A stretch of DNA of 32,000 bases from an uncultured Opitutales bacterium (lineage in GTDB: Bacteria > Verrucomicrobiota > Verrucomicrobiia > Opitutales > UBA9783), in the NCBI GenBank assembly GCA_934691225.1, contig CAKUSQ010000001.1, forward strand, positions 660,001 to 692,000, given 5' to 3'. This document shows, piece after piece, positions 2,222 to 27,961 of the stretch. Made by a program: the position numbers and the translations under genes. Each line of letters begins with the position of its first letter. The first letter of the stretch is position 1. The notes under the pieces were generated by a model. That model ran no database searches. It saw only the letters and a program-made list of their open reading frames with translations, and was not told the origin of the DNA.

Positions 2222-3034
2222 TTACTCAAAAGTGAAATTGAGAAAGGTATGTGGAAAAAACATGTAAATTATTGCAGCGATAGTTAAAAATGGTCCAAAA
2301 GGAATACATTTATTTTTTAATGATACGTAATTTTTAGAAACTATTTTTTTGTATAAGCCGTAAAGTATCAATAAAAATGATCCTAAAATAGCTCCAAAAA
2401 ATAAACTGAACATGCAACCTTCCAGGCCTAAGAAAGCACCGATACAACCAATTAATTTTACATCACCAAGGCCCATAGCTTCTTTTTTTAAAAAAAATTC
2501 AGCAAAACAAATAAAGCAAAATAAACCACCCATCCCTAAACAAGTGCATTTAATACTTTCTAACATTCCTGTGAATGCATTTGTTTGGTGATGCATTTGA
2601 GGGAAAAAATAGCTAATCAATACACCAGTTGTAATTCCTAACAGTGAAATTTCATCTGGAATAAGCAAGGTATTAAGGTCGGTAAAAAATGCAACCCATA
2701 AAAAACAAAACAAAAGAAAATGTGGAAGTGCCAATTGTTTAAAGTATAAATAAATAGTTATAGCACCTATACCGACCCCAATTTCAGATAGGAAATACCG
2801 AAAAGGTATAGTATTTTGGCAGCATTTGGTTTGCCCTTTAAGGTACAGCCAACTTAACAAAGGAATATTTAGGTACCAAGGAATAGGTTTTTGGCAGTAA
2901 GGACAGTGTGAACCTGGATGTACAATGGATTCACCTTTAGGTAATCGATCAATACAAACATTGAGAAAGCTTCCTAAACATATTCCAAATATAAATACAA
3001 TAATTATTTGGATACTGATCGGTAATTGCACCAT
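2222..3034 (-). CDS. Prepilin (type IV / T2SS pseudopilin) leader peptidase, peptidase family A24
   Basis: 270 aa polytopic membrane protein. It has the N-terminal Cys cluster HCPYCQKPIPWYLNIPLLSWLYLKGQTKCC. Both catalytic Asp motifs are present: FFTDLNTLLIPDE and MGLGDVKLIG. Confidence 0.85.
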   Translation of the reverse strand: MVQLPISIQIIIVFIFGICLGSFLNVCIDRLPKGESIVHPGSHCPYCQKPIPWYLNIPLLSWLYLKGQTKCCQNTIPFRYFLSEIGVGIGAITIYLYFKQLALPHFLLFCFLWVAFFTDLNTLLIPDEISLLGITTGVLISYFFPQMHHQTNAFTGMLESIKCTCLGMGGLFCFICFAEFFLKKEAMGLGDVKLIGCIGAFLGLEGCMFSLFFGAILGSFLLILYGLYKKIVSKNYVSLKNKCIPFGPFLTIAAIIYMFFPHTFLNFTFE

Positions 3035-4163: not shown

Positions 4164-4895
4164 CTAGATATCAATATCCCAATGTATTTCTTTTAAAAAA
4201 TCCTTACATAAGGGGTTGAATGGTGAGTGCTGCAAGCAGCGTTGCGTATGTTTTATATGAGAATAACTTAGTGATGTAGGCGACATTTGACGAGCAAAGC
4301 AAATCAGCTCATACGTGGGAGAAAATCCAAAGCGTGCAATAAATTGAACAGCACGAAGGATACGATAAGCATCTTCCATAAAATGGGGAGAGATAGGACG
4401 CAAAACTTTCTTTAAAAGATCATGATAACCTTTATAGGGATCAAAAAACTCTGAAGATAATGGGTCAAATCCCATTGCATTGATAGTAAAGTCGCGGCGT
4501 TTTGCCGCAAGTCTAAAATCGAGGTCTGGGCATAATGTTATTTGAAAATCATTGTATTTTTGACCGGTACATACTTCTTGTCTAGGCAAGGAAATATCTA
4601 TATTGTTTTGTAGTTTTAAAACACCAAATTTAGGGTATTGTGCAACGATTTTGTCTTTAAATAGATTTTGTAACTGTTTGTAATTCAAATGGTATACTTC
4701 CAAATCAATATCAGGATTTTCAGAGATATTTAGTTGTGTATCACGTACCCAACCTCCTACAATTAATGCCTTACCACCTAGATGTTTTATTTGTTGACAA
4801 AGTGCAATAATGGTTGAATTGGGTAGAGATTTAATTTGAAAATTCACAGGATTTAAGCACCACAGCCGTAGAAATAATCTTCTAGCATTAAACAC
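4164..4895 (-). CDS. tRNA nucleotidyltransferase / poly(A) polymerase family protein (class II), unusually short with head and neck only
   Basis: Motif A is GGKALIVGGWVRD...DIDLEV, motif B is RRDFTINAM and motif D is EDAYRILRAVQFIARFGF. The ORF is only 243 aa, whereas bacterial CCA-adding enzymes are usually about 400 aa. The ATG at 4895 overlaps gmhA by 43 nt. An in-frame GTG at 4845-4847, 5 nt after the gmhA stop, is a plausible alternative start. Confidence 0.75.
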   Translation of the reverse strand: MFNARRLFLRLWCLNPVNFQIKSLPNSTIIALCQQIKHLGGKALIVGGWVRDTQLNISENPDIDLEVYHLNYKQLQNLFKDKIVAQYPKFGVLKLQNNIDISLPRQEVCTGQKYNDFQITLCPDLDFRLAAKRRDFTINAMGFDPLSSEFFDPYKGYHDLLKKVLRPISPHFMEDAYRILRAVQFIARFGFSPTYELICFARQMSPTSLSYSHIKHTQRCLQHSPFNPLCKDFLKEIHWDIDI

Positions 4896-5470
4896 AGAGT
4901 ATGATAAATAGGCAAATGAAGTTCTTGGATTTTGAAGGTTACAACTTCAGGAACACAGATGCAAACATCGCACAAATTTTTTAATTCTCCTCCATCGTGA
5001 CCAGACAAACCTAAAACACTTATGTTTAAATCACGCGCTGTTTTAGCAGCATTGAGGATATTTTTTGAATTACCTGAGGTGCTGATAACTAACAAACAAT
5101 CTTGAGGTTGTCCTAAAGCATATGTTAATTGCGCGAAGCACCATTCAGGTTCACAGTCGTTACTGAAAGCAGAAAGGAATCCATGGAAATTCGCTAGTGG
5201 GATGGCGGGAAGTGCGTGCTGCAAATGACTTGAAATGGTCGGATGTACATGGCTAGTTGTTAGGTCTTTTTTGATGAAAAAAGCTTTTAAAAGTTCTCCT
5301 GAAATGTGGTCGGCATCTGAAGCACTTCCTCCATTGCCTGCAATAAGCAGCTTATGCTTTGATGAAAATGTTTTACATAAAAGATCAAAACTAGCCAAAA
5401 TTGAATCTTTACAGAAATCAAGTTGAGGATAACGTTGCAATAAATCTGTAAAAATACGGTTATTTTGCAT
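4853..5470 (-). CDS. gmhA: SIS-domain phosphoheptose isomerase (D-sedoheptulose-7-phosphate isomerase GmhA/DiaA family)
   Basis: 205 aa. Motifs are IAGNGGSASDADHISGELL, VISTSGNSKNILNAAKTAR, LSGHDGGEL and IQELHLPIYHTLC, which are typical GmhA blocks. Confidence 0.8.
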   Translation of the reverse strand: MQNNRIFTDLLQRYPQLDFCKDSILASFDLLCKTFSSKHKLLIAGNGGSASDADHISGELLKAFFIKKDLTTSHVHPTISSHLQHALPAIPLANFHGFLSAFSNDCEPEWCFAQLTYALGQPQDCLLVISTSGNSKNILNAAKTARDLNISVLGLSGHDGGELKNLCDVCICVPEVVTFKIQELHLPIYHTLCLMLEDYFYGCGA

Positions 5471-11884: not shown

Positions 11885-12021
11885 AGCAAATGCCTAGTTT
11901 TAGTAGAATGCTGAGGTTATGAACGAATGCATTATTAAAATTGACATAATTTTTATTTTTGTCAAAATGTGTACCTATGTGGATCTCTAAGTGTTTCTGA
12001 TGCAATTCTAGAATAATTAAT

Positions 12022-13416
12022 GTGAGGAGAATATTCATATTTTTTTTTGCAAAAGTAGCTGTATGTATGGCTATCATCGTAAGTTCGATTGGCTATGCTT
12101 ATCCTAGGTTTTTTGAAACAAAATTAACGGAAGATAAAGAAGTCGTATTGTTTAGGCCTTTTGTAGCTAGGTATAAATATAATTTGCATGGAAATTATCG
12201 TGAAGAAAATTATTTGCTGTATCCATTAGGTCGAGAGTATCGTCAGAAAGGCCATTTATACTGGAGTACTTTGTTGGGTTTGTTTAATTATGAACTCAGG
12301 GAAACCGATCGTAGGTTGCAAGAGGGGGCGTTTTATCCTTTTTATTTTTTTAAGAAGGGATTTAGTAAAGAAGCTGATTATGCTGCTATTTGGCCATTAG
12401 GAGGAACGGTTAAAAATTTTTTAGGTAAAGATCAATCCGATTGGTTTTTATGGCCGTTGTGGGTAAAAACAAAGAATAACGGAACAATTAATTACTGGTT
12501 TCCATGGCCATTTTTAAATAAATGTACAGGAAATGCAGATGGTTTTGGATTTTGGCCATTGGGAGGACATTTTTTTCAAAAAGATGTGTATGATAAGCGT
12601 TATGTGCTTTGGCCTTTGTTTTATCATCATGCGTATTTTCAGGATAACACAATTAAGAAAGGTTTTTTGCCATTTTATGCGTACGAATATAGTCCTAATG
12701 TTAAAGATTTATCCATTTTTTGGCCTATTTGGGGGCATCGTTGGGAAAAAACACCGCGCTACGAAGAGCATCGTATTTTGTGGCCATTATGGGTTCAAGG
12801 ACGAGGGGTAGAACGCAATGTGAATCGTTGGGCCCCTTTTTACACACATTCGGAAAATAAACGTTTAAAGCATGAAAAGACGTGGTATCTATGGCCTTTG
12901 ATTAAACATCAACGTTGGGAAGAGCGTGGAGTTGATGTCCAACAAGAACAGTTTATGTACTTTATTTTTTGGCATCAGGAACAAAAAGATTGTAAAACGA
13001 AAAAATTTTTGGCAAGGAAAACACATTTTTGGCCGTTTTATAGTTATTGGGAGAATAATCAAGGCTGCAAACAATTACAAATGTTGAGTCCTTTTGAAGT
13101 TTTTTTTCAAGGTAATAAAGTGATTCAGGATGTTTATACACCTTTGTTTAGTTTGTATCGTTACAATGAAAATAGCTATGGTGTTGAACAGAGTTTTTTG
13201 TTCAATATGTTTCGTGAAAAAAGGACGATGAATGATGAAGTAACAATGAATTTTAGTTTTTTGTTGGATTATAAAAATACGCAGCAAGAAAAATCAATTT
13301 CGTTATTGAAAGGTTTGTTTGAATATAAGAAAATTAACAATGAAAAATCCTTGAAATTATTTTGGATGAGATTGAAAAAAAATCAGACAAGCAAAAAGGA
13401 TTGTAAAGTTTTATGA
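12022..13416 (+). CDS. Secreted aromatic-Pro (WP) repeat protein of unknown function, first gene of the mla-type array
   Basis: 464 aa from a GTG start. Signal-peptide-like N-terminus is MRRIFIFFFAKVAVCMAIIVSSIGYA. About 15-20 tandem units of 19-22 aa are each headed by [FLIW]-[WYLA]-P-[LFI], for example IWPLGG, LWPLWV, FWPLGG, LWPLFY, FWPIWG, LWPLWV, LWPLIK and FWPFYS. Its stop overlaps the mlaE start (ATGA at 13413-13416). Confidence 0.7.
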   Translation: MRRIFIFFFAKVAVCMAIIVSSIGYAYPRFFETKLTEDKEVVLFRPFVARYKYNLHGNYREENYLLYPLGREYRQKGHLYWSTLLGLFNYELRETDRRLQEGAFYPFYFFKKGFSKEADYAAIWPLGGTVKNFLGKDQSDWFLWPLWVKTKNNGTINYWFPWPFLNKCTGNADGFGFWPLGGHFFQKDVYDKRYVLWPLFYHHAYFQDNTIKKGFLPFYAYEYSPNVKDLSIFWPIWGHRWEKTPRYEEHRILWPLWVQGRGVERNVNRWAPFYTHSENKRLKHEKTWYLWPLIKHQRWEERGVDVQQEQFMYFIFWHQEQKDCKTKKFLARKTHFWPFYSYWENNQGCKQLQMLSPFEVFFQGNKVIQDVYTPLFSLYRYNENSYGVEQSFLFNMFREKRTMNDEVTMNFSFLLDYKNTQQEKSISLLKGLFEYKKINNEKSLKLFWMRLKKNQTSKKDCKVL

Positions 13417-14156
13417 GAATTTTAAAAGATTGGCAATATGCGTTTAGTTTGCTGGTGGGTTCCTTGAAAGAATTGAGGTACCTGATGCGTCAGCTGCCAC
13501 GTTGCATTGCACATAGTTGCAATATTGGTTATAAAACATTACCGATTGTTGCCATTTTAAGTTTGTTTATGGGAGGAATTTTAGCCCTGCAAACCGGGTA
13601 TAGTTTAAGTAAATTACCCGGAGCACAATCGTTTTTGGGAAGCATTGTTGGATTATCTATGTGTCGAGAATTGGGGCCTTTAATGACGGCTTTTTTGTTA
13701 ACCGGGCGCGTGGGATCAGCTATTACAGCAGAATTAGCTTCGATGTCCGTTTATCAAGAAATTGATGCATTACGAACGATGAATTTGTCGCCAGTTCGTT
13801 TATTGGTGATGCCACGATTGTTAGGAGGATTATTAATGATGCCATTTTTAACCATGTTTTCAAATGTTTTGGGATGGTTAGGTGGATGGCTAATTGTAAA
13901 AATGGTAGATATAATTTCCATTGATGGAAGCATTTATTGGCGCAGTTTGAAACAGTATGTGGATGTGGAAAGCATTTGTGATGGTTTGATAAAAGCTGAA
14001 TCTTTTGCATTAACCATCATACTTATGAGTTGTTCAATCGGGCTCAGGACGCGTGGAGGGCCACGAGAGATAGGTGCTTCCGTAACTAGCACCTTGGTAC
14101 AAACGATGGTAGCTATTTTGGTACTAGATTACTTTTTAACCAATTTGCTTATTTAA
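13413..14156 (+). CDS. mlaE: MlaE-family ABC transporter permease (phospholipid/lipid maintenance)
   Basis: 247 aa polytopic protein. Motifs are GYSLSKLPGAQSFLGSIVGLSMCRELGPLMTAFLLTGRVGSAITAELASM..YQEIDALRTM, the characteristic MlaE/YrbE block. Confidence 0.85.
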   Translation: MRILKDWQYAFSLLVGSLKELRYLMRQLPRCIAHSCNIGYKTLPIVAILSLFMGGILALQTGYSLSKLPGAQSFLGSIVGLSMCRELGPLMTAFLLTGRVGSAITAELASMSVYQEIDALRTMNLSPVRLLVMPRLLGGLLMMPFLTMFSNVLGWLGGWLIVKMVDIISIDGSIYWRSLKQYVDVESICDGLIKAESFALTIILMSCSIGLRTRGGPREIGASVTSTLVQTMVAILVLDYFLTNLLI

Positions 14157-14159
14157 ATT

Positions 14160-14945
14160 ATGTCTATTTTTAATTCGAAAACAAAAACAGCTGTTTCTAT
14201 CAAAGTAGAAGAGGTAAGCAAAACCTTTGGTTCACATACGGTTTTAGAGAAATTAAATCTGTCGGTATCACCAGGTGAAGTTTTTGTTTTAATGGGACCA
14301 AGTGGTACAGGTAAAAGTGTTTTTTTAAAGTTGCTTTCAGGGTTGGATCAGCCTACTTCCGGTAAAATTGAAATCAATCATACGCCATTGAAAGAAGTTC
14401 GGGCGACACAAAAGTACGTATTAGGACTTGTTTTTCAAGCAGGTGCCTTATTCAATTCGATGAATGTATTTGATAATTTGGCACTGTACTTTCGCGAGCA
14501 TGCTCTATTTAGCGAAGCTGAAATAGAAAAACGTATTGGGCAAGTTTTGCATCTTTTAAACTTGAGGGATGCAGCCTTATTGATGCCAGCTGATTTGTCT
14601 GGAGGTATGAAAAAACGTGTAGCGTTGGCTCGTGGATTGCTTATGGAACCTGATGTTTTATTGTTTGATGAGCCTACTTCAGAACTTGATCCGATGACGG
14701 CCGCTTCCATCATAGAATTAATTGGCTATGTCAATAAGAATTTAGGCATTACTACCGTTATTGCTTCACACGATATTGCTTTAGCCAGAAGTATAGGGCA
14801 CCACATTGGCGTTTTACAGAATGGTAAAATTGAGGAGATTTATACCCCAGAAACGCTTATACAATCCAGCAATGTTTTTGTTAAGAATTTTTTAAATCCA
14901 ACCGTTAATATAGAACATCCTAAATTTGTATCTTTTTTATCATGA
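14160..14945 (+). CDS. mlaF: MlaF-like ABC transporter ATP-binding protein
   Basis: Walker A is GPSGTGKS, the Q-loop is VFQAGALF, the ABC signature is LSGGMKKRVALAR, Walker B is LLFDEPTSELD and the H-loop is ASHD. Confidence 0.9.
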   Translation: MSIFNSKTKTAVSIKVEEVSKTFGSHTVLEKLNLSVSPGEVFVLMGPSGTGKSVFLKLLSGLDQPTSGKIEINHTPLKEVRATQKYVLGLVFQAGALFNSMNVFDNLALYFREHALFSEAEIEKRIGQVLHLLNLRDAALLMPADLSGGMKKRVALARGLLMEPDVLLFDEPTSELDPMTAASIIELIGYVNKNLGITTVIASHDIALARSIGHHIGVLQNGKIEEIYTPETLIQSSNVFVKNFLNPTVNIEHPKFVSFLS

Positions 14946-15934
14946 AAACAAAGTATGAAAGTATTCGCGTAATTCTGTTTGCCGTATTTGGGTTATTCCT
15001 AATGTATGTTGTTTATTCAGCGTTGAATAACTTATCTGTTTCGCGACATGACAGTTACAATATTAAAGCACTTTTTACCGATTTAAAACAATTGCAAATC
15101 GGCGATGATGTTAGGATTGCGGGTGTTCGTGTAGGAAGCGTTACCCATACTTATCTTAATAAGGGTTTGGCTGTAGCTGTATTGAGCATAGAAAAAAAAT
15201 ACGCTATACCTGAAGATTCTGTCGCTACTATTTTAATGGCTGGATTGTTGGGAGCGAATTATATTTCTATTGTTCCAGGAATCTCAACAAATATGATGGA
15301 TGAATCAGGTTTTTTAGAAACGCAAAAAGTTTCGGATGTTTCTTCAGTGATTCAAAAATTTAGTTCTATCGGTGATCGATTGAATCGAATTTTGTCAGGA
15401 TTTGATGGAAGCGATGAAGGTGATGCCTCAGGAAGGCCTAATTTGTTTCAGGAATTGGGTGATTTCTTCCACAATAATAAAGATAAATTAGAAAAAATTG
15501 TGGACAATATTTCAGAGATTACCGGAAAGATTTCAGAAGGGCAGGGGACTTTGGGCCGACTTATCAATGAGGATCAAGCTTACAATGATTTGTTAGATAC
15601 CATGCAGTCTATAAAAACAGCTGCACTTAAGGTGGATTCTATATTGAAAAATTTTGATGATATTTCCAAAAACATAAAAGATGGTGACGGATTGCTGTGC
15701 AAATTAATTTCAGACGAAAAAACAGCGCAATCCTTTGAAGAAATCTTAAACAATATTAAGTCGTTTTCAAATAAGTTAAATAGTGAAAATAGCACTTTGG
15801 GACGTATCATTTCAAATGATGATTTGTATAAGCAGGCAGAAGCAACTTTAGGAAAAGTCGAAAAAGCTGTGGATAGCGTTTCAAATTCAGGCCCTATCAC
15901 TGCTGTTGGAGCCGCTGCAAGTGCATTATTTTAA
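14942..15934 (+). CDS. mlaD: MlaD/MCE-domain protein with a long helical C-terminal extension
   Basis: It has one N-terminal TM segment (VILFAVFGLFLMYVVY). The MCE domain reads IKALFTDLKQLQIGDDVRIAGVRVGSVT...AGLLGANYISIVPG. About 190 aa of helical, coiled-coil-like sequence follow. Its start overlaps the mlaF stop. Confidence 0.8.
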   Translation: MKTKYESIRVILFAVFGLFLMYVVYSALNNLSVSRHDSYNIKALFTDLKQLQIGDDVRIAGVRVGSVTHTYLNKGLAVAVLSIEKKYAIPEDSVATILMAGLLGANYISIVPGISTNMMDESGFLETQKVSDVSSVIQKFSSIGDRLNRILSGFDGSDEGDASGRPNLFQELGDFFHNNKDKLEKIVDNISEITGKISEGQGTLGRLINEDQAYNDLLDTMQSIKTAALKVDSILKNFDDISKNIKDGDGLLCKLISDEKTAQSFEEILNNIKSFSNKLNSENSTLGRIISNDDLYKQAEATLGKVEKAVDSVSNSGPITAVGAAASALF

Positions 15935-15941
15935 TACAAAG

Positions 15942-17111
15942 ATGCATTTTAATTTAACTAAATCTTCTTTTGAAAAATGTTGTAAGTATTATGAAGAGAT
16001 AGCAGAGGTAGAAAAACGTTTTGATCGTATCCAAGCACAAAATTTGCATCCATTGGATAAAATTTATATCCTTTTGCAAACATGTAAATTAGGTACACTT
16101 AATTTTTCACATTTGGCACGTTGTGGTTTCATTGCTAGTTCGTTTTTAAAATCATTTGTAACAAAAGGTATTATTTCTGAGGAAGAAAAGACGGCACTTA
16201 TAAATAATATTCAAACGATTACAGGACAATTTTTTGAAAAAACGCAAGAAGCTATAATGGGTAATATTTCAAAAGAAGATTGCATTCAAACCTATGGCCA
16301 TTTGCGTCCTGGTACGTATGATATTACTTCCCCAACTTACCGTTCAGATCCAGATAAATATTTATTTGCTAATACTTCCGTAAAGGAAAAATCTAAAACA
16401 GCTAAAACGGTATTTGGTAGCACTAAATTGGAATCAAGTTTAAAAGAATTGTTTGATATTTCTTTGGATGATTTTAAGAAATTTTTATCACAAGCTATTG
16501 CAGGACGAGAGTATTCTAAGTTTGTTTTTACACGTTATGTTTCACTTGTGTTAGATCTTATTAAAGAGATGGGTCAGTCTTACGGTTTTAGTGCGGACGA
16601 CATGTCTCATTTGCCTGTCACTGTATTTGAAGATGTTAGAAATGGGTTATATTCTGTAAAAGATGTAAAAAATTTGTTTAAATCTATCATTGAACCAGGT
16701 AAAGAGTACGATCGAGTTATACAAAGTATAGAATTGCCACCATTGATAAAGCAAACAGAGGATTTTTATTCATTTTTTGTTCCAAAAACATTGCCTAATT
16801 TTATTGGGGATAAGTGTATAGAAACGGAATTGATTTATTTAAAAAATTCAATGCATACAGATGGAGTTTGCTTAAAAAATAAGATTGTTTTAATTGAAAA
16901 AGCAGATCCAGGTTTTGATTGGATTTTTAATTACGGAATTGCTGGACTTATTACAGCTTATGGGGGTCCTAATTCTCATATGGCGATTCGAGCAGCTGAA
17001 TTTCATTTGCCTGCTAGTATTGGTGTGGGGTCATCATTGTTCGATAAGTTAAAAACTGCACAATTTGTTCAATTAGACTGTTCAGCTCATAGGCTTAATG
17101 TTATTCGGTGA
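15942..17111 (+). CDS. PEP-utilising-enzyme family protein, central domain plus C-terminal phosphohistidine swivel domain. It resembles the C-terminal half of a Cj1418-type L-glutamine kinase and has no ATP-grasp domain.
   Basis: The C-terminal motif GLITAYGGPNSHMAIRAAEFHLPASIGVG is the PEP-utilising mobile-domain signature, with the His codon at 16977-16979. The track start at 15906 is a TTG inside mlaD. The first ATG is at 15942, 7 nt after the mlaD stop. No nucleotide-binding domain is encoded upstream. Confidence 0.65.
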   Translation: MHFNLTKSSFEKCCKYYEEIAEVEKRFDRIQAQNLHPLDKIYILLQTCKLGTLNFSHLARCGFIASSFLKSFVTKGIISEEEKTALINNIQTITGQFFEKTQEAIMGNISKEDCIQTYGHLRPGTYDITSPTYRSDPDKYLFANTSVKEKSKTAKTVFGSTKLESSLKELFDISLDDFKKFLSQAIAGREYSKFVFTRYVSLVLDLIKEMGQSYGFSADDMSHLPVTVFEDVRNGLYSVKDVKNLFKSIIEPGKEYDRVIQSIELPPLIKQTEDFYSFFVPKTLPNFIGDKCIETELIYLKNSMHTDGVCLKNKIVLIEKADPGFDWIFNYGIAGLITAYGGPNSHMAIRAAEFHLPASIGVGSSLFDKLKTAQFVQLDCSAHRLNVIR

Positions 17112-17115
17112 TATT

Positions 17116-17712
17116 ATGTTAAAAGTTGGTATTACTCAACGTGTTGATTACATTGAATCCATAGGAGAAACGCGTGATGTTTTAGACCAGCGTTGGGTAG
17201 AACTACTGAAAAATAATGGGATAATTTTGATCCCTATACCTAATAAGTGTTTTGTTCAAAGCTTTATTGATGTGGTTAAGTTGAATGGAATTATTGTAAG
17301 TGGTGGAAATGATCATGCATCTCGTTTAGCTTGTGAAACGGATTGCGTTGATTACTGTTTAAAACATCAACTGCCTTTATTAGGTGTGTGTCATGGGATG
17401 CAGTTTATAGGACAATTTTTTGGTTCCCATTTGGTACGTATTGAGGAGCATGTTGGAAATTGTCATGATGTAAATATAAGAGATAATCGTTATGGAATTC
17501 CAAGAGGTAATTTTAAAGTTAACTCTTTTCATAATTTTACATTGGATAAGGTACCGAGTGTGTTTTTTGTTTTGGCAACCGATAACGCAGGACATTGTGA
17601 AGCTATGTTTCACAAAAATTTACCAGTAGTAACCTTTATGTGGCATCCTGAGCGTCCACCATTTTTGAATTGGTTTAATCATTTTATAAAGAATTTTTAT
17701 GAAGAATACTAA
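17116..17712 (+). CDS. Class I glutamine amidotransferase-like hydrolase, peptidase C26 family (gamma-glutamyl hydrolase type, Cj1417-like)
   Basis: The nucleophile elbow is LLGVCHGMQFIG, with the Cys codon at 17389-17391. The His/Glu pair is in MWHPER. Length of about 198-204 aa is typical. An alternative ATG at 17098 overlaps the upstream gene. Confidence 0.8.
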   Translation: MLKVGITQRVDYIESIGETRDVLDQRWVELLKNNGIILIPIPNKCFVQSFIDVVKLNGIIVSGGNDHASRLACETDCVDYCLKHQLPLLGVCHGMQFIGQFFGSHLVRIEEHVGNCHDVNIRDNRYGIPRGNFKVNSFHNFTLDKVPSVFFVLATDNAGHCEAMFHKNLPVVTFMWHPERPPFLNWFNHFIKNFYEEY

Positions 17713-18439
17713 GATTTTTGTTCTTTGTGCCGGTGAAGGGAAACGTTTGCGTCCGTATACAGAAGATAAACCTAAGTGTATGGTACCTTATAAAAACAAA
17801 CCATTATTGCAGTATCAGTTAGAGGTTTTTGAAAAATTTCATTTAAATGATATCACGCTTATCGGCGGGTACCACTATGAAGCTTTACCGAAAGACTTGT
17901 ACCCTGTGGTTGTTAATCATGATTTTTCAACTACCAACATGCTTTTTAGCTTGTTTTGTGCCGAAAATGATATGCCAGAAGACCACGATATAATTATAAG
18001 CTATGGAGATATTATTTACAATGCTTCTGTTTTAGAATCTTTATTAAAAGCTAACGATGCTTGCAGTATAATTACGGATATTGATTGGCGAACTTATTGG
18101 AATAATCGTATGGAAGATCCACTGAAAGATGCTGAAACATTTCGTTGGAATGTAGAAACGCGTCGTATTTTCGAGTTAGGTAAGAAGCCAAAAACACTAG
18201 ATGATATTCAAGGGCAGTATATCGGTTTATTTAAAATTGCAGCTCCATTTGTTAAAAAATTCAAGCAAATGTACGAAACATTTAAACGCACCTATCCGAA
18301 CTATAAAGATGCGTACATGACAGATTTTTTACAGTTTCTCATTAATAAAGATTTCCCAACGTTTGGTGTTCCTATACATAATAAATGGGCAGAATTTGAT
18401 ACCGTTAATGATTTAAATCTAGATATTCATTGGTTATGA
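17699..18439 (+). CDS. Nucleotidyltransferase, LicC/Cj1416-like cytidylyltransferase fold
   Basis: 246 aa. The N-terminal signature is IFVLCAGEGKRLRPYTEDKPKCMV (G-x-G-x-R-L...K-P-K), followed by YGDIIY. It overlaps the upstream gene by 14 nt and the downstream gene by ATGA. Confidence 0.8.
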   Translation: MKNTKIFVLCAGEGKRLRPYTEDKPKCMVPYKNKPLLQYQLEVFEKFHLNDITLIGGYHYEALPKDLYPVVVNHDFSTTNMLFSLFCAENDMPEDHDIIISYGDIIYNASVLESLLKANDACSIITDIDWRTYWNNRMEDPLKDAETFRWNVETRRIFELGKKPKTLDDIQGQYIGLFKIAAPFVKKFKQMYETFKRTYPNYKDAYMTDFLQFLINKDFPTFGVPIHNKWAEFDTVNDLNLDIHWL

Positions 18440-19749
18440 AAGATTTTTTAAAAAATTCGTTGTTTAACTGTTTATTACCTTGGGCATTTATTTGTTTTCG
18501 GTATAATCAATGTCATGGATATTTTGCTGAAAGCTACGAAGTTTTATTCGCTTTTTTAGGACTTATATGGCTTGTTAACATTTTTTTGTCATTTATAAAG
18601 TTACCGATTAACTTTATTGTATCTTTGTGGGTTGTCCTTATTTTACCTAATTTGTCTGGTAGCTTAATAAAGGATATTATTTATAAGATTTTTTTCGTTT
18701 TAGGGTGTACTTCTGTTATAAAGAAATCATCTACAAATCCGATTAAAATTTTACTTTCAATTATTATTGGATTTAACCTTTTTCAAATTGTTCAAAGAGA
18801 TTATTGTGCAAGAAAAACAGCTAATAAATTGATAAAAAATGTTTCTATAAATAAAAATTTTTCATGCAATGAAAACATTTATTGGATTGTCTGCGATGCT
18901 TACACAAGTTTGGATGGTTTGAAGGATTATTACCACTTTGATAATACAAAATTTTATCAAGATTTAAACGATTTAGGATTCTTAACACCTGATGGACAAG
19001 TGCCATATAAGAAAGTAAATCAATTTCCAACGTTAAAAGCACTAAATTTTTATACCAATTTTAATCATTTTGATGTTACAAAAGAAAATTCTTTGACATT
19101 ACATTATGGGTTAAAATATAACATTTTTTTTAATACTTTAGTTGCAAAAGGTTATTCATTGTGGGCAACTTATTCTAGAGCCCCGTTTTTATACAAATTA
19201 CAAAATGTGAGTTCGTTAGGGAACAAAGGTGTTTCAGTAGCTTTGCAATTTTTTTATCATTGTTTTAACCATAATAAGTTTTTAGCAAAAATAGTTTCGA
19301 AAAAACTTAATGAGCAACTGTATATTCACCAAAAGGATGTTTTTAAGTTTTTACGTTATAATTTTAAAACAACTAATAAATGTTTTTATTATATTCATAT
19401 AGATTCTCCACATGCTCCTTTTGTTAGAGGTCAAAACAATGAATTTGTAAATGATCAAAAAAGTGTCGTTTGGGGAGAAAATGAGGTTGGAACAAATGCA
19501 TATAAATTTAAAGATTACCGAAAAGGATATATAAAACAATTACAGGGATTAAATAAGAAAGTTTTGGAATTGATTAAGTTGATTTGCCAAAAGGATCCTC
19601 ATGGAGTTATCATTTTGCAAGGTGATCATGGAACATTTACAACCGATGATTTACGAGAACATCAGTCATTTTTGTTTGCTATAAAAACAAATATTGCGTA
19701 CAAATATCTTCAAACAGAACAATTTTTCAAACAGTTTATTTATGAATAG
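18436..19749 (+). CDS. Membrane-anchored alkaline-phosphatase-superfamily enzyme with the architecture of a phospho-group transferase or phosphodiesterase (EptA/LtaS/NPP-like)
   Basis: About 5 N-terminal TM segments precede a soluble domain. That domain carries the motif set IYWIVCDAY (metal Asp), NQFPTLKAL (candidate Thr nucleophile, compare the fPT.T motif of NPPs), YYIHIDSPHAPF (D-x-x-H) and ILQGDHGT (DHG). The ATG at 18436 overlaps the upstream stop. The track start at 18430 is a TTG. Confidence 0.6.
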   Translation: MKDFLKNSLFNCLLPWAFICFRYNQCHGYFAESYEVLFAFLGLIWLVNIFLSFIKLPINFIVSLWVVLILPNLSGSLIKDIIYKIFFVLGCTSVIKKSSTNPIKILLSIIIGFNLFQIVQRDYCARKTANKLIKNVSINKNFSCNENIYWIVCDAYTSLDGLKDYYHFDNTKFYQDLNDLGFLTPDGQVPYKKVNQFPTLKALNFYTNFNHFDVTKENSLTLHYGLKYNIFFNTLVAKGYSLWATYSRAPFLYKLQNVSSLGNKGVSVALQFFYHCFNHNKFLAKIVSKKLNEQLYIHQKDVFKFLRYNFKTTNKCFYYIHIDSPHAPFVRGQNNEFVNDQKSVVWGENEVGTNAYKFKDYRKGYIKQLQGLNKKVLELIKLICQKDPHGVIILQGDHGTFTTDDLREHQSFLFAIKTNIAYKYLQTEQFFKQFIYE

Positions 19750-20962
19750 TATGAGAATTATGATTTTTATATTTATTTTGTTTCTTGTAATAGAACATTT
19801 TTTAAAAAAATATTTAATTAAAACAGGGTTGTTCCTTAAAGAATTTCCTAACATTGATAAGAGGATAATAAATCGTTATAAGACATTTGATAAAGTATTG
19901 GGTTGGAAACCTATACCTACTCTAAATCATCCGGACAATACAGGATCGTACATAGGTATAAATTCAGGAAGTTTTTTTTCTATAAATGAATTCGGTAGTA
20001 GATTTTTTAAAAATTCTTTTTCTTCAAAATACATAGCGACATTTGGAGATTCTTTTTGTATGTGTAGGGAAGTAAACGATGATTGTACATTTCAATATTT
20101 TTTATCACAACAAACTAATTCTTTCGTTTTTAATTATGGAGTTGGTAATTATGGATTAGATCAAGCACTTTTAAGATTCGAAACAACTAAATTGCCTCCT
20201 TCGGTAAAACATGTGATAATGGTAATAACCCCTTGGACAATAGAGAGAATTATCAGTATTTGGAAACACTACTGCGAACCAGGTAATTTGTTAGCTGCAA
20301 AACCAAGATTTGTATTGGAAAATAAAAAATTAAAGTTAATCGATAATTTTATTAAGAATACTAGTGATTTTTTAAATTTAAAAAAATATAAGGATTTTTT
20401 ACATAACTATGACGGTAATTATTGTTTTTTTTATCAACAATTAAAAACATTTCCAAAAACAGCATTAGGATATTTATTTTCCAATCCAGATGCTATAAAA
20501 TATATTTTAGCTGTAAGTAAAATAAAAAGCATAAAACTTGAAGAAAAAAATAGAAAGGAAGCTATAGGAAGCTTTTTAAAGCAATCAGAACCATTTTTAT
20601 TAAAAAAGTTTTATCAAGAAAATCAATATTTACAATCCTTATATGATAAACAAAAGGAGTTATTAAAAAATATATTGAAAAGGTTTGTAGAGTCTTGTGT
20701 TAACGATGATAAGGTACCGTATTTAGTATTTTTACCATCATATTCGCATGTAAAATTTATAAAACAAGGAAATCCTTTGTATAGAAATATAGTAAATCCC
20801 ATATGTGAAGGGATTGGATTGAATTTTATAGATGGATTTAATTTTTGGAAAACGTTTGATGAAGACGAATTAAAAAATTGTTACATAGATACTTATGGCC
20901 ATCATTCAAAAATTGGGAATAAGTATATAGCTGATTTGATTTATAAAACGTGGTTTATTTAA
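19742..20962 (+). CDS. Signal-anchored SGNH/GDSL-like hydrolase or acyltransferase, family assignment tentative
   Basis: N-terminal anchor is MNSMRIMIFIFILFLVIEHF. Block I is IATFGDSFCMC, a Gly/Asn block is NYGVGNYGLDQ, and the C-terminal D..H block is YIDTYGHHS. The track start at 19694 is a TTG. The ATG at 19742 overlaps the upstream stop by 8 nt. Confidence 0.55.
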   Translation: MNSMRIMIFIFILFLVIEHFLKKYLIKTGLFLKEFPNIDKRIINRYKTFDKVLGWKPIPTLNHPDNTGSYIGINSGSFFSINEFGSRFFKNSFSSKYIATFGDSFCMCREVNDDCTFQYFLSQQTNSFVFNYGVGNYGLDQALLRFETTKLPPSVKHVIMVITPWTIERIISIWKHYCEPGNLLAAKPRFVLENKKLKLIDNFIKNTSDFLNLKKYKDFLHNYDGNYCFFYQQLKTFPKTALGYLFSNPDAIKYILAVSKIKSIKLEEKNRKEAIGSFLKQSEPFLLKKFYQENQYLQSLYDKQKELLKNILKRFVESCVNDDKVPYLVFLPSYSHVKFIKQGNPLYRNIVNPICEGIGLNFIDGFNFWKTFDEDELKNCYIDTYGHHSKIGNKYIADLIYKTWFI

Positions 20963-20972
20963 AACTTTTATA

Positions 20973-21998
20973 TCAATAAAGTAACCAGAATTTTCTTTGA
21001 TTAAAGAAATTGTAATTAACTTGTGTCTATCTTGCATTTATACGAGCGATAGAATCATCAGTTAAAAGACCGGAAGCCAAAAGTTGAGCAATTTTCATCT
21101 CCAATAATGGTTCTAGCGACGGATAAATACTCAGATAATCTTTGATTATCGTTTTGTGCATATGGATATGAAATTGCCATGCAGAAAAAAAGCTATTGTA
21201 CAACTATACCCAAATACACTTTCAAAGCAAGGAATGTTGAGTGAAGGGGGCATGCCGCGTGAAACCTGGCTGTTTTTCTTGCTAACTCCATAACTTATCT
21301 GGTTTGTAATTCTCCATTTTTATAATTTGTAAGGGACATTTAGACGTGCCTAAATTCTTGACTATTGAACCTGGAATGTTTAAAACAGAAAAGTTAACGT
21401 GTGGTTGGTAGTTTTTTATTAACATTGTAGCTAAGTTATCCATGTAAAAATTGAATAATAAAGCCACCTGTATAGCTTTGTAGTTGAGGTTCCAGTAAAG
21501 CTCCAGATAGAGGATTAGGACGCTTTAAAATGAAAACCTTTTTTTTAAATGTAAGCAGGTTTCTAAAGTATAACGCATACAAGTTATGTATGTGTAACAT
21601 CAAACACTTACATCCACTAGATCTATTACTAAAGTATCAATGTTGTCAAATATAGCAGATTCTATTTTTTTTGTATTATTTTTATATAAAGAATTTTTAT
21701 AAGTGTCATCTTTTACAGCTTCTCCAGCTTTTGCACAGCCCGTAAGTCTATGTTCTGGAGAAAAAAAGCAGCTTACGCGACTGAATAGATTTCCTTGTTA
21801 ATCTTGATTGGCATCTGCAAAAATATCACTTGTAGGAATATTTTTGGAACTTGTAGCGGACACATGTGTTAAAACACCTATTTTTCTCCCACAGTTTTTT
21901 AAGTCATTAAAATTACGCTCTATGAGGCAATTTACCTCCAATTTCAGTGGCTCTGCATATAAAACTGATGTGAGCGTAAAACAGAAAATTATTACCAT
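20973..21998 (-). pseudogene. Degraded DUF1343 / NamZ-like (exo-beta-N-acetylmuramidase family) gene
   Basis: Hand translation across frames recovers the family blocks in order. These are signal peptide plus LKNCGRKIGVLTHVS, FFSPEHRLTG, IDTLVIDLVDVSV*CYTYI, VFILKRPNPLSG, SYTGGF..LHG and a C-terminal QRKFWLLY*. Disruptions are a stop at 21798-21800, an in-frame TGA at 21600-21602 where the family has Arg, and at least two frameshifts. Confidence 0.75.
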
Positions 21999-25825: not shown

Positions 25826-26251
25826 TTAGCGAAAGCTTATAATAATTTCTCCTCCTGCCACGAGTGTTTCGTTTTTATAAGCAGCGACTTTTGCTTTACA
25901 AAAATCTTCATATAAACCTAAACAAGTTGCTTCTGTTGTTAAAACAACACCTGGTTTAATCTTTTCAAAAAATTTTACATTACATTTTGCCATATATCCA
26001 AGGTCGGATTTAAGGACTTTTTCAGTTTTTGAATAAAGCATAATTCCAATCGTTTGTGCCATCATTTCTATTATTATATTACCTGGCAAAACCGGATTAT
26101 TAGGAAAATGCCCTTGAAAGAACCATTCGTTATAAGTAATCGCCTTAGATGCTTTTGCAAACTTTAAATAGTCACACGAGATGATCTTATCTATAAATAA
26201 AAATGGATATCTCTGAGGAAGACACTGAATAACATCTAAACTATCCATCAA
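25826..26251 (-). CDS. Hotdog-fold 3-hydroxyacyl-ACP dehydratase, FabZ-like
   Basis: 141 aa. Motifs are LPQRYPFLFIDKI and WFFQGHFPNNPVLPGNIIIEMMAQ, which include the catalytic His and Glu blocks of FabZ/FabA. Confidence 0.8.
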   Translation of the reverse strand: MMDSLDVIQCLPQRYPFLFIDKIISCDYLKFAKASKAITYNEWFFQGHFPNNPVLPGNIIIEMMAQTIGIMLYSKTEKVLKSDLGYMAKCNVKFFEKIKPGVVLTTEATCLGLYEDFCKAKVAAYKNETLVAGGEIIISFR

Positions 26252-26510
26252 TTTTATTATCTATCAAGTAATCTACAATATTATCTATCGTTCTCAACTT
26301 CCAATAATCTTCAATTTTAATGTGGAAAGTTTCTTCAATTTGTGAGACCAATTCCACAACATCTATGGACTCCAATCCTAATCCATCAGAAAATAATGAA
26401 ACGTCTGTTTTTATTTCATCTTTTCTAAAACCATCCGGGTCAATAATTTCCCGAACTATATTAGTAACAGCCTCTTTGTAATGCTGCTTTAATTCCAATT
26501 TATTCATCAT
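26241..26510 (-). CDS. Acyl carrier protein (phosphopantetheine attachment site)
   Basis: 89 aa and acidic. The motif DGLGLESIDVVELVSQIEETF is a (D/G)LG(L/F)(D/E)S-type Ser attachment motif. It overlaps the FabZ-like gene by 11 nt. Confidence 0.8.
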   Translation of the reverse strand: MMNKLELKQHYKEAVTNIVREIIDPDGFRKDEIKTDVSLFSDGLGLESIDVVELVSQIEETFHIKIEDYWKLRTIDNIVDYLIDNKIDG

Positions 26511-26696: not shown

Positions 26697-27961
26697 CTAA
26701 CTTTTAACAACTTTGCATTTCGGTTTGTAATTTGCTATACAATTGCGGGTGTCCACAATACATTTTGCATTTTTAGCAATCATTTCGTAGGGTACACTAT
26801 TATGCGATGTAAGCATCAAGCAAACATCATAGCTTTTTATCGTATTTTTAGACAAATTGATACATTTTTTACCTGTTAATTGTGAAAAATTACGAGTGTT
26901 TGGAATTTCAGGTACATAAGGATCATAATAGTCAAAATTTATCCCTAATTGTTGTAGTCTTTTAATGATAGGAAATGCTGGCGATTCTCTTAGGTCGCAA
27001 ATATTCGCCTTATAAGCCAAACCAAATACTAAAACACTGGAACCTTTGGCAGATTTTTATTGATCGTTTAACGCATTAACAACTTTTTCAACCACAAACT
27101 GATGCACTTTAAAATTGATTTCACCTGCAAGCTCAATGAATCGTGTATGCATTTCATATTCTTTTGCTTTCCAAGTTAAGTAAAATGGATCTACAGGGAT
27201 ACAATGTCCACCAATTCCAGGTCCTGGATAAAATGGCATAAATCCATAAGGTTTTGTTTTGGCGGCATCAATTACTTCCCAAACATCAATTGCCATGCGA
27301 TCACAAATCATCTTTAATTCGTTAATTGCAGAAATATTGATGGCTCTAAACGTGTTTTCCCAAATTTTTACCATTTCCGCAGTTGAACAAGTAGAAACAG
27401 GAACAAGTTGTTCTACAAATTTAGAATATAAAACCATTGCCTTGCTTTTACAAGCTTCTGTTACTCCACTAATAATTTTGGGAACATTATCAAAGTTCGA
27501 CAAAGGATTCCCTTGATCTTCACGTTCTGGAGAATATCCCAGGTAAAAATCAACACCAACTTTGCCGAAAGCTTTTTCCAAAACAGGTAACATTACTTCT
27601 ATTGTTGTTCCTGGATATGTCGTAGATTCAAGCATAACCAAAACACCTTTAGAAGCATTTTCAGCAATGGATTTTACACTCGATTCGATATAAGATAAAT
27701 CTGGCGTATGTTGTTTAGTTAGTGGTGTTGGTAAACAAATGATACCAGCTTCAGCTTCTTTTAGTATCGTAAAGGAAGAGGATAATTTTAACTTTCCAAC
27801 CTCTATACAATTAGGAAAGTTGGAAACATCCAGTATGGAAATTTTATTGATACCTTTAGATAAATCTTCAATTCGATCCCTATCGCAGTCAATCCCTTTT
27901 CCAAGCAACGCTTCAATAAAGAACAACCGACATAGCCTAATCCTATAACTGCTACGTTCAT
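26697..27961 (-). pseudogene. Nucleotide-sugar dehydrogenase (UDP-glucose/GDP-mannose dehydrogenase family, WecC/TviB-like), disrupted by one frameshift and one in-frame TAA
   Basis: The ATG at 27959-27961 gives MNVAVIGLGYVG (Rossmann) in one frame. The frame shifts near 27870-27880 to ...RIEDLSKGINKI...ICLPTPL...LESTTYPGTT...YSPERE...GGHCIPVDP (catalytic Cys). TAA at 27057-27059 is in frame with the C-terminal domain ...SSVLVFGLAYKANICDLRESPA...YYDPY. Confidence 0.8.

Follow-up and report, generated by a model that had tools for sequence, protein, structure and literature searches.

The locus in the window

The 32,000-nucleotide stretch analyzed here (the window) belongs to an uncultured Opitutales bacterium (assembly GCA_934691225.1, contig CAKUSQ010000001.1, positions 660,001 to 692,000) and carries three forward-strand genes related to those with which Campylobacter jejuni makes cytidine diphosphoramidate (CDP-amidate), the precursor of its capsular O-methyl phosphoramidate (MeOPN). 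The first open reading frame (ORF1, here K'; 15942–17111) encodes, counted from its ATG, the 389 C-terminal residues of a glutamine-kinase-like protein (Pfam PEP-utilizers), and its swivel-domain motif GGPNSHMAIRAAE (16962–17000; PF00391 and family alignment) holds the presumed phospho-accepting histidine. The second (ORF2, H; 17116–17712) encodes a 198-aa class I amidotransferase or C26-type gamma-glutamyl hydrolase resembling Cj1417 (Pfam GATase/Peptidase_C26), and the third (ORF3, N; 17699–18439) a 246-aa LicC/PntC-like cytidylyltransferase resembling Cj1416 (Pfam NTP_transf_3). ORF2 can be called longer, from 17098 to 17712 (204 aa), but because its homologs are all 198 aa long the start is probably Met7 of that frame, i.e., position 17116. 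This start lies 4 nt from the stop of ORF1, ORF2 and ORF3 overlap by 14 nt, and the stop of ORF3 overlaps the start of the next gene, P4. A preliminary description of this DNA had reported three tightly packed genes, a set of motifs and the three folds; the frames are there, adjacent, co-directional and in the order kinase, hydrolase, cytidylyltransferase, the remaining motifs lie at 17383–17403 (GVCHGMQ), 17641–17655 (WHPER) and 17726–17755 (CAGEGKRLRP), and the Pfam matches agree with the folds.

The counterparts in C. jejuni are mpnA/cj1418 (779 aa), mpnB/cj1417 (200 aa), and mpnC/cj1416 (253 aa; PMC7901785), which together carry out phosphorylation of glutamine, formation of CDP-Gln and hydrolysis to CDP-amidate (PMC11800397). 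Other members of that locus are cj1415/mpnD (170 aa), two methyltransferase genes (cj1419/1420) and two transferase genes (cj1421/1422; PMC11800397, PMC7901785). The proposed homology to cj1418, cj1417, and cj1416 in the same order finds support at family level, through passage of the PRK05849 model by a full-length relative, the best match of H to NF045546, and JGI product names (see below). H (198 against 200 aa) and N (246 against 253 aa) also agree in size with their counterparts, whereas the kinase of the window is a C-terminal remnant of 389 aa.

A deletion relative to an intact allele

An intact locus is found in the same species in GCA_944389485.1 (L099; L numbers denote the loci and contigs compared). 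The gene order there is M16, M16, a 449-aa protein, MlaE, MlaF, and MlaD, followed on the minus strand by a methyltransferase (84 + 191 aa) and a 372-aa Glyphos_transf protein, and then on the plus strand by the kinase (990 aa), H (198 aa), N (246 aa), P4 (437 aa), and P5 (406 aa). L099 keeps the TagF-like gene (PF04464) whole. Its methyltransferase is called as two overlapping ORFs (L099:8032–8827, minus strand) that jointly align to single proteins of about 272 aa in L015, L041, and L083, and the split reflects a frameshift or else a fault in the assembly.

The window and L099 are collinear without a gap over 8,011 bp up to window position 15939 (96.6% nucleotide identity, blastn; window 15939 equals L099 8011) and collinear again from 15933 (96.0%; window 15933 equals L099 11793), the sole large difference being a gap of 3,788 bp. 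The junction (15933–15939) lies at an imperfect 7-nt microhomology, AAT(G/A)CAA. Kinase codons 1 to about 598 went with the missing segment, as did the methyltransferase and TagF-like genes, so that both the methyltransferase and the candidate phosphoramidate transferase of the intact locus are gone from the window. To the left of the junction lies the MlaE/MlaF/MlaD operon (13413–15934, plus strand; Pfam MlaD, and MlaE/ABC_tran/MlaD in the annotation of L001 and L099). MlaD is directly upstream of ORF1 and ends at 15934, and the 3' end of the operon now abuts the kinase remnant. Just past the junction (window 15940–15960 against L099:11800–11822) the window reads GCATTTTAATTT and L099 reads GCATTGCTTAATTT, a loss of 2 nt. 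Both flanks of the window are shared with L099 only, and no synteny of the left flank was found with L007, L010, or L014. Searches of the 32-kb window by tblastn (E ≤ 1) returned no TagF-like, APS-kinase-like (adenylylsulfate-kinase-like) or cassette-type methyltransferase sequence.

More than two alleles are present in public data. The 90%-identity cluster that contains the 389-aa protein also includes versions of 990 and 965 aa, as well as a frameshifted version with an N-part of 675 or 624 aa ending in ...DKIYVPFANM and a C-part of 348 aa; this version is consistent with a single base inserted after GTCC at codon ~645. The region 12000–21000 of the window is 100% identical to contigs from human-gut metagenomes, one of them from a Hadza sample: L001–L004, from several samples, match completely, and L005 and L006 differ at runs of N only. 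Apparent frameshifts in ORF1 of L005 and in P4 of L006 were discarded, as they are 10-N scaffold gaps and not mutations. Because contigs from several samples show zero diversity, the deletion allele is, judged from these sequences, a young clone and the deletion recent.

Identity of the kinase remnant

ORF1 matches NCBIfam NF004508 (PRK05849, 789 positions) over positions 410–788 only, with an E-value of 5e-118 and a score of 395 bits that stays below the cutoff of 501. It aligns with residues 604–992 of the L010 kinase at 70% identity and corresponds to kinase codons ~598–990 of L099; by these alignments ORF1 is a fragment, the C-terminal 39% of a kinase of about 990 aa. PF00391 matches residues 313–381, and the swivel-domain motif is nearly invariant across the kinase family alignment. 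Full-length relatives (990–1012 aa) consist of a nucleotidyltransferase-like (NTase-like) domain of about 200 aa, a PPDK_N/ATP-grasp region and then the part represented by ORF1, which accordingly retains the central and phosphohistidine swivel domains and is without the N-terminal NTase-like and ATP-grasp domains. The N-half motifs MPDWNPAEIVG, GYKDVRP, and GHPYVDVRAS are absent from ORF1, and the PPDK_N/ATP-grasp half left no tblastn trace anywhere in the 32-kb window (E ≤ 1). The full-length ATP-grasp kinase is thus missing from the window and present in L099 (990 aa) and in L010, whose kinase, from the same clade, passes NF004508 with 884.6 bits against the cutoff of 501 (residues 209–991 on positions 5–788). 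A 57% identical homolog carries the JGI name "glutamine kinase."

The NTase-like domain occurs in most kinase relatives (L010:5019–5648; most of L014–L091). It has a weak NTP_transf_3 match with GAGKSKQF in place of G-x-G-x-R, is weakly similar to the separate cytidylyltransferase and is not part of Cj1418, to whose 779 aa the intact relatives thus add about 200.

In enzymes of the pyruvate phosphate dikinase (PPDK), phosphoenolpyruvate (PEP) synthase and rifampicin-phosphotransferase family, it is ATP bound by the ATP-grasp domain that charges the swivel histidine. The swivel domain (PF00391) is shared with these enzymes, PPDK_N is present in the full-length orthologs, and catalysis through a phosphohistidine is presumed. 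The central domain of the kinase is however specific to the PRK05849 family, and the window copy is without ATP-grasp. Models of PEP synthase and PPDK match only the swivel domain of ORF1 (~70 aa, E 2e-7 to 1e-2; 14–30 bits against cutoffs of 600–1000), the PDB structure 2ols aligns over about 90 residues only, and no full-length match including the PEP/pyruvate-binding TIM-barrel domain was obtained for ORF1.

Identity of the hydrolase and the cytidylyltransferase

The best NCBIfam match of H is NF045546, gamma-glutamyl-CDP-amidate hydrolase (3e-33; the next is 2.8e-17). Hydrolases of intact cassettes in Legionella, Marinobacter, and a Chlamydiales metagenome-assembled genome (MAG) score alike on this model (114–134 bits), which places the group to which H belongs as a probable sister of Cj1417 and not as the Campylobacter-type equivalog. 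Cys92, His177, and Glu179, the catalytic triad, are invariant in the homolog alignment, and homologs 35–40% identical to H carry the JGI name "N5-(cytidine 5'-diphosphoramidyl)-L-glutamine hydrolase." N matches no specific curated model, its NCBIfam matches being of GlmU/RmlA type and confined to the N-terminus. It retains the invariant G12, G14, R16, and K26, and homologs 44–61% identical are named "L-glutamine-phosphate cytidylyltransferase" by JGI, while NCBI labels relatives of N as "phosphocholine cytidylyltransferase family."

Comparison of structure models, as the preliminary description had suggested, gave an AlphaFold2 model of H (pLDDT 95.7) nearest to PuuD/SpuA (TM 0.84) and one of N (pLDDT 96.4) nearest to PntC, LicC, and inositol-1-P cytidylyltransferase (TM 0.73–0.81). 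These are the best solved folds for the two proteins and share with them the triad and the G-x-G-x-R...K signature, but identity is merely 16–27%, and the LicC structure 1jyk aligns well with N over residues 4–96 only. Unlike H and N, the PuuD, LicC, and PntC systems are not partnered in the genome with a PRK05849 kinase. Among the neighbors of N in the window there is neither a choline kinase nor a transporter, i.e., not the licABCD context of LicC; across loci N is partnered by the kinase and H. The PDB contains no chains of Cj1416, Cj1417 or Cj1418.

Distribution and partners of the cassette

One genome per species was scanned for relatives of the kinase. At least 577 stretches encode such relatives, and the best 80 were examined as loci; this set is skewed toward the fused architecture of about 1000 aa because the query had that architecture. 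The kinase, hydrolase, and cytidylyltransferase genes are contiguous, co-directional and in the same order in 64 of the 80 loci, and all three are nearby in 12 more, so the trio is indeed co-located in related genomes. The 80 loci come from Gamma-, Alpha-, and Betaproteobacteria, Actinomycetota, Chloroflexota, Planctomycetota, Verrucomicrobiota, and Bdellovibrionota, and further from SAR86, Pelagibacteraceae, one Chlamydiales MAG, and one Rickettsiales MAG; the C. jejuni locus is not among the best 80 of the at least 577. In the literature searched MeOPN is described as confined to Campylobacter and the kinase as specific to C. jejuni (PMC6429109, PMC9561416), the exceptions being a phosphoramide group in the lipooligosaccharide of Xanthomonas campestris (PMC8042644) and a bioinformatic annotation of the MeOPN pathway on Borg elements. 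The view that this chemistry is restricted to Campylobacter, which the preliminary description shared, does not sit with the number of matching stretches in species-representative genomes or with the conserved gene order.

Two further genes recur beside the trio. The TagF-like partner (PF04464) is found in about 45 of the 80 loci, and clusters of class I S-adenosylmethionine (SAM) methyltransferases of ~272 aa in up to about 37. A reading of the methyltransferase cluster as a formyltransferase was dropped, because its core is that of a class I SAM methyltransferase, to which a formyltransferase-like domain is joined in some cases. Other recurrent neighbors are GT1, DegT, dehydratases, UDP-glucose (UDP-Glc) dehydrogenase, an ABC transporter, and sulfatase-family membrane proteins.

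An APS kinase resembling Cj1415 lies beside only 5 of the 80 loci. A Campylobacter-like layout, with an unfused kinase of 785–790 aa, one or more methyltransferases and an APS kinase, is found in L092 (Lachnospiraceae) and L093 (Rhodospirillaceae), and L092 additionally has a PF04464 (Glyphos_transf) protein where the MeOPN transferases sit. With the APS kinase of L093 (PF01583) as query, tblastn at E ≤ 1 found no Cj1415-type kinase in the window or in L099. In one metagenome contig, L095 (4272–7185), the N-part of the kinase is joined with an APS_kinase domain in a 590-aa protein (APS_kinase + PPDK_N), a fusion that would unite Cj1415-like and Cj1418-like functions, in an assembly that looks prone to frameshifts. 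L095 was rejected as a natural split kinase, as its N-part overlaps the C-part, which indicates a frameshifted assembly or a pseudogene.

Decay in related lineages

The cassette is whole in L010, L012, L015, L016, L018, L019, L041, and L089. Elsewhere it has been damaged in different ways. L014 has lost about 70 aa in frame from the NTase-like domain; in L007–L009 the kinase is cut down to codons 1–24 and 864–992 and the TagF-like gene to its first 99 codons; in L017 the TagF-like gene runs across three frames, only kinase residues 134–827 are left, and the hydrolase and half of the cytidylyltransferase are deleted; and L020 has lost the 5' ends of the TagF-like gene and of the kinase, which is also frameshifted. 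In L096, a close relative of L012, the C-half of the kinase is fused to a fragment of a 5'-3' exonuclease. Because sister lineages carry different lesions and the species of the window carries three alleles, the cassette has been inactivated repeatedly and independently in the clade. The usual first casualties are the two largest genes, those for the kinase and the TagF-like protein, which share a divergent promoter.

The fusion in L096 (3287–5260, P0001) is in frame with the N-terminal domain of the exonuclease and is followed by the hydrolase gene; genes upstream of it (DUF723 and others) look phage- or mobile-element-like. Homologs of about 390 aa on long contigs (P0120, P0071) were considered as natural split kinases and rejected, their loci being full of short broken ORFs.

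Constraint on the remnant

Between the window and L099 the ratio of nonsynonymous to synonymous substitution rates (dN/dS) is 0.07 for the kinase remnant, 0.29 for the hydrolase, 0.19 for the cytidylyltransferase, 0.23 for P4, 0.12 for P5, and 0.03–0.11 for the flanking genes; the hydrolase and the cytidylyltransferase have values of 0.12 and 0.07, respectively, when the window is compared with L007. The share of the terminal branch leading to the window in neighbor-joining trees is similar for the kinase remnant (0.086), the hydrolase (0.083), and the cytidylyltransferase (0.089). Neither dN/dS nor terminal-branch share thus gave a sign of relaxed constraint in the kinase remnant. These tests cannot separate a recent deletion from continued selection, because the deletion allele is without diversity and most of the divergence from L099 predates the deletion.

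P4, P5, other genes of the window and the host

The trio is followed by genes for a membrane protein of 437 aa (P4; 18436–19749, plus strand) and a membrane-anchored protein of 406 aa (P5; 19742–20962, plus strand), neither of which has a Pfam, NCBIfam, or PDB match. The start of P4 overlaps the stop of N. Homologs of P4 directly follow N in L099, L018, L016, and L089, and mere remnants of it do so in L007 and L017; the homolog in L018 (14290–15444) has an internal stop. Homologs of P5 that are 60–62% identical follow N in L010 and L014, and weaker ones lie beside the cassette in Legionella (L024), L071, L084, and L091. By eye, P4 has DSPHAPF and GDHG, recalling transferases of the alkaline-phosphatase/sulfatase superfamily, and P5 has GDS...GxNYG...DxxGHH, recalling SGNH hydrolases.

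Further downstream a gene of the UDP-glucose/GDP-mannose dehydrogenase family (26697–27961, minus strand) is divided over three ORFs, a 52-aa GxGxxG start (27803–27961), a 289-aa middle part (27057–27926), and a 107-aa C-terminal domain (26697–27020). It looks like a pseudogene and suggests a wider decay of glycan genes in the window. The downstream glycan genes also include one for a FabA/ApeP-like dehydratase of 141 aa and one for an 89-aa acyl-carrier protein (both within 25826–26510, minus strand), a pair that may hint at a product of the acylated or aryl-polyene type. Near the other end (4164–5470, minus strand) a 243-aa ORF with only the head domain of a PolyA_pol/CCA-adding enzyme overlaps the start of a SIS-domain ORF and may be another truncated gene.

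The window begins with genes for a CesT-family type III secretion chaperone (275–733), a transporter of the major facilitator superfamily (MFS; 799–2148) and a prepilin peptidase (2222–3034). The chaperone and the transporter may account for the earlier impression of a Chlamydiae-like context. That impression is not borne out, as the named genomes nearest to it are MAGs of uncultured Opitutales, Puniceicoccales, and Verrucomicrobia, obtained from sources such as Hadza stool, horse faeces, and yak rumen, and the lone Chlamydiales MAG among the best 80 loci is 37% identical. The Opitutales belong to the Verrucomicrobiota, in the Planctomycetes–Verrucomicrobia–Chlamydiae (PVC) group.

Interpretation

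We consider it likely that the window holds a recent loss-of-function remnant of a widespread five-gene, MeOPN-like surface-glycan cassette and that in this strain the pathway no longer operates. The intact cassette, which is carried by the same species and by many other bacteria, consists of an NTase-fused kinase, a hydrolase, and a cytidylyltransferase together with a divergently transcribed TagF-like CDP-X phosphotransferase and a SAM methyltransferase. By homology with Cj1418 the kinase would use ATP to phosphorylate L-glutamine at its amide nitrogen to give N-phospho-Gln; the cytidylyltransferase would use CTP to form CDP-Gln, as expected from Cj1416; and the hydrolase, if it acts like Cj1417, would free glutamate and leave CDP-amidate. 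The TagF-like enzyme is predicted to release CMP as it moves the (methyl)phosphoramidate onto a hydroxyl group of a glycan, and the methyltransferase would act before or after this transfer. A single deletion between short microhomologies has joined the 3' part of the kinase gene behind the MlaEFD operon. Without the ATP-grasp domain the swivel histidine could not be charged from ATP, and without the transferase the product would have no outlet; the pathway should therefore be off in this strain. The remnant, the hydrolase, and the cytidylyltransferase would still be whole only because the deletion is recent.

Beside the trio the intact L099 allele has, like the C. jejuni MeOPN locus, a gene for a SAM methyltransferase and also one for a candidate transferase; the cassette likewise lies amid polysaccharide genes, and variation between on and off states within a species recalls the phase-variable MeOPN transferases. 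Inactivation takes place here by deletion or frameshift, however, and not by slippage of poly-G tracts; the candidate transferase is a TagF-like protein (PF04464) of ~372 aa whereas the MeOPN transferases have ~610–640 aa, a comparison by size; and a homolog of the Cj1415-type APS kinase is lacking in the window and in L099. The absence of this kinase suggests that CDP-amidate itself, and not its 3'-phosphate, is the donor. The nearest demonstrated precedent for the steps after the CDP-activated compound is FtaC and FtaD of Clostridioides difficile, where FtaD uses CDP-N-methylthreonine: a TagF-like enzyme moves phospho-X from CDP-X and a SAM methyltransferase acts on CDP-X (bioRxiv 10.64898/2026.02.12.704994, PMC10714395). 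The ftaABCD genes (cd0241–cd0244), for the flagellin Type A glycan, share the logic of a LicC-like cytidylyltransferase, a SAM methyltransferase, and a TagF-like transferase. Their donor is however CDP-(N-methyl)threonine, derived from phosphothreonine, with a P-O and not a P-N bond, and they include neither a PPDK-type kinase nor a gamma-glutamyl hydrolase.

Several points weigh against a disabled cassette. The remnant is a clean ORF of 389 codons with all family-invariant residues of the C-half, and the 2-nt difference past the junction stops the old frame and sets the ATG at 15942 in frame. The remnant, H, N, P4, and P5 are tightly packed behind MlaEFD and all could be expressed. The dN/dS of 0.07 fits a recent deletion but equally a protein that still functions, and the deletion allele is the most frequent one in public assemblies (16 contigs) and not obviously costly. 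The search for an ATP-grasp partner or a second transferase covered the 32-kb window only. As to the pathway itself, H scores 115.5 bits on NF045546, short of the equivalog cutoff of 250, and with no Cj1415-type kinase even in intact alleles the end product of the cassette is one that we infer.

It is conceivable, if unlikely, that H and N are kept by selection and serve with P4 and P5 an envelope function that does not depend on the kinase, e.g., cytidylylation of another phospho-compound such as phosphocholine, aminoethylphosphonate or a phospho-amino acid, which are possible substrates. The nearest solved folds of N (PntC and LicC) and the phosphocholine label on its relatives would agree with this, and so would the survival of H and N as whole genes in three lineages that have lost the kinase (the window, L007, and L020) and their low dN/dS between the window and L007. 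The last values cover mostly the time before the loss, however, and two genes of 1.3 kb in total may outlast the 4.1 kb of the kinase and TagF-like genes by chance, being small targets. L017 has lost its hydrolase. In addition, H and N are nearly always found beside the kinase (64 of 80 loci), which argues for one pathway, and a gamma-glutamyl hydrolase would be purposeless in a LicC-type route.

Alternatively the remnant itself may work, the 389-aa protein being charged in trans by a PPDK_N/ATP-grasp protein encoded elsewhere and the CDP-amidate being used by another transferase, e.g., P4. We regard this as quite unlikely. It would account for the intact and constrained frame with its newly arisen start codon, for the operon-like arrangement of whole H, N, P4, and P5 genes and for the abundance of the deletion allele, and remnants consisting of the C-half only do recur in other lineages (L096/P0001, P0005). 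But zero diversity among the deletion-allele contigs means that the signal of constraint is mostly older than the deletion, and the fragments that survive elsewhere, the N-half in L017 and only ~130 aa in L007, form a pattern of decay and not of a selected split. Similarly, the homologs of about 390 aa on long contigs are fragmented assemblies or pseudogenes, and no ATP-grasp sequence is present in the 32 kb.

That the genes are unrelated to MeOPN, being generic PEP-synthase, PuuD, and LicC/GlmU-type genes that are adjacent by chance, is very improbable: the NF045546 score of H below the cutoff and the lack of a specific curated model for N, with GlmU/RmlA-type matches at its N-terminus only, would fit, but PEP-synthase models reach no more than E ~1e-7 and only on the swivel domain (~70 aa), where PRK05849 reaches 5e-118, a full-length ortholog clears the PRK05849 equivalog cutoff, close homologs of all three proteins bear JGI pathway names, and the trio keeps its order across phyla far beyond chance. 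The original proposal, in which a Chlamydiae-like intracellular bacterium has a working CDP-amidate pathway and with it a P-N envelope modification that is new, has least in its favor and is hardly credible, since the match in domain content and order to cj1418–1416 and the CesT-type chaperone and MFS transporter in the window stand against a kinase without its ATP-binding half, a deleted transferase and methyltransferase, and nearest genomes that are Opitutales/Puniceicoccales, with one Chlamydiales MAG among the best 80.

Significance of the cassette

On the preferred reading, that of a disabled cassette, the window shows a copy only lately put out of action in a gut Verrucomicrobium, and its genes are no sign of new P-N envelope chemistry there. 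A broader proposal is offered tentatively, as one that may well turn out not to hold: the intact five-gene cassette, without a Cj1415-type kinase, would be a complete and uncharacterized route in which CDP-amidate is the direct source of the (methyl)phosphoramidate put on surface glycans, and it would form an on/off surface trait in human-gut Opitutales of which the window carries an "off" allele produced by deletion. The "off" allele perhaps arose under pressure from phages or the immune system, as for MeOPN of C. jejuni. The occurrence of intact, frameshifted, and deleted alleles within one gut species suggests that the decoration is under fluctuating selection.

The order of the module, usually with the TagF-like transferase and the methyltransferase, is kept across Proteobacteria, Actinobacteria, Chloroflexi, Planctomycetes, Verrucomicrobia, and others. 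If the proposal is true, the species that carry the cassette number in the hundreds and belong to many phyla; cultured members of Marinobacter (M. zhanjiangensis KCTC 22280), Legionella (L. septentrionalis km711), Rheinheimera (R. maricola MA-13), and Halomonas (H. faecis JSM 104105) are among them. In C. jejuni, MeOPN gives a 31P NMR signal near 14 ppm (PMC7901785). Culturable carriers are thereby available in which to look for phosphoramidate glycans, with the TagF-like proteins as the candidate transferase family.

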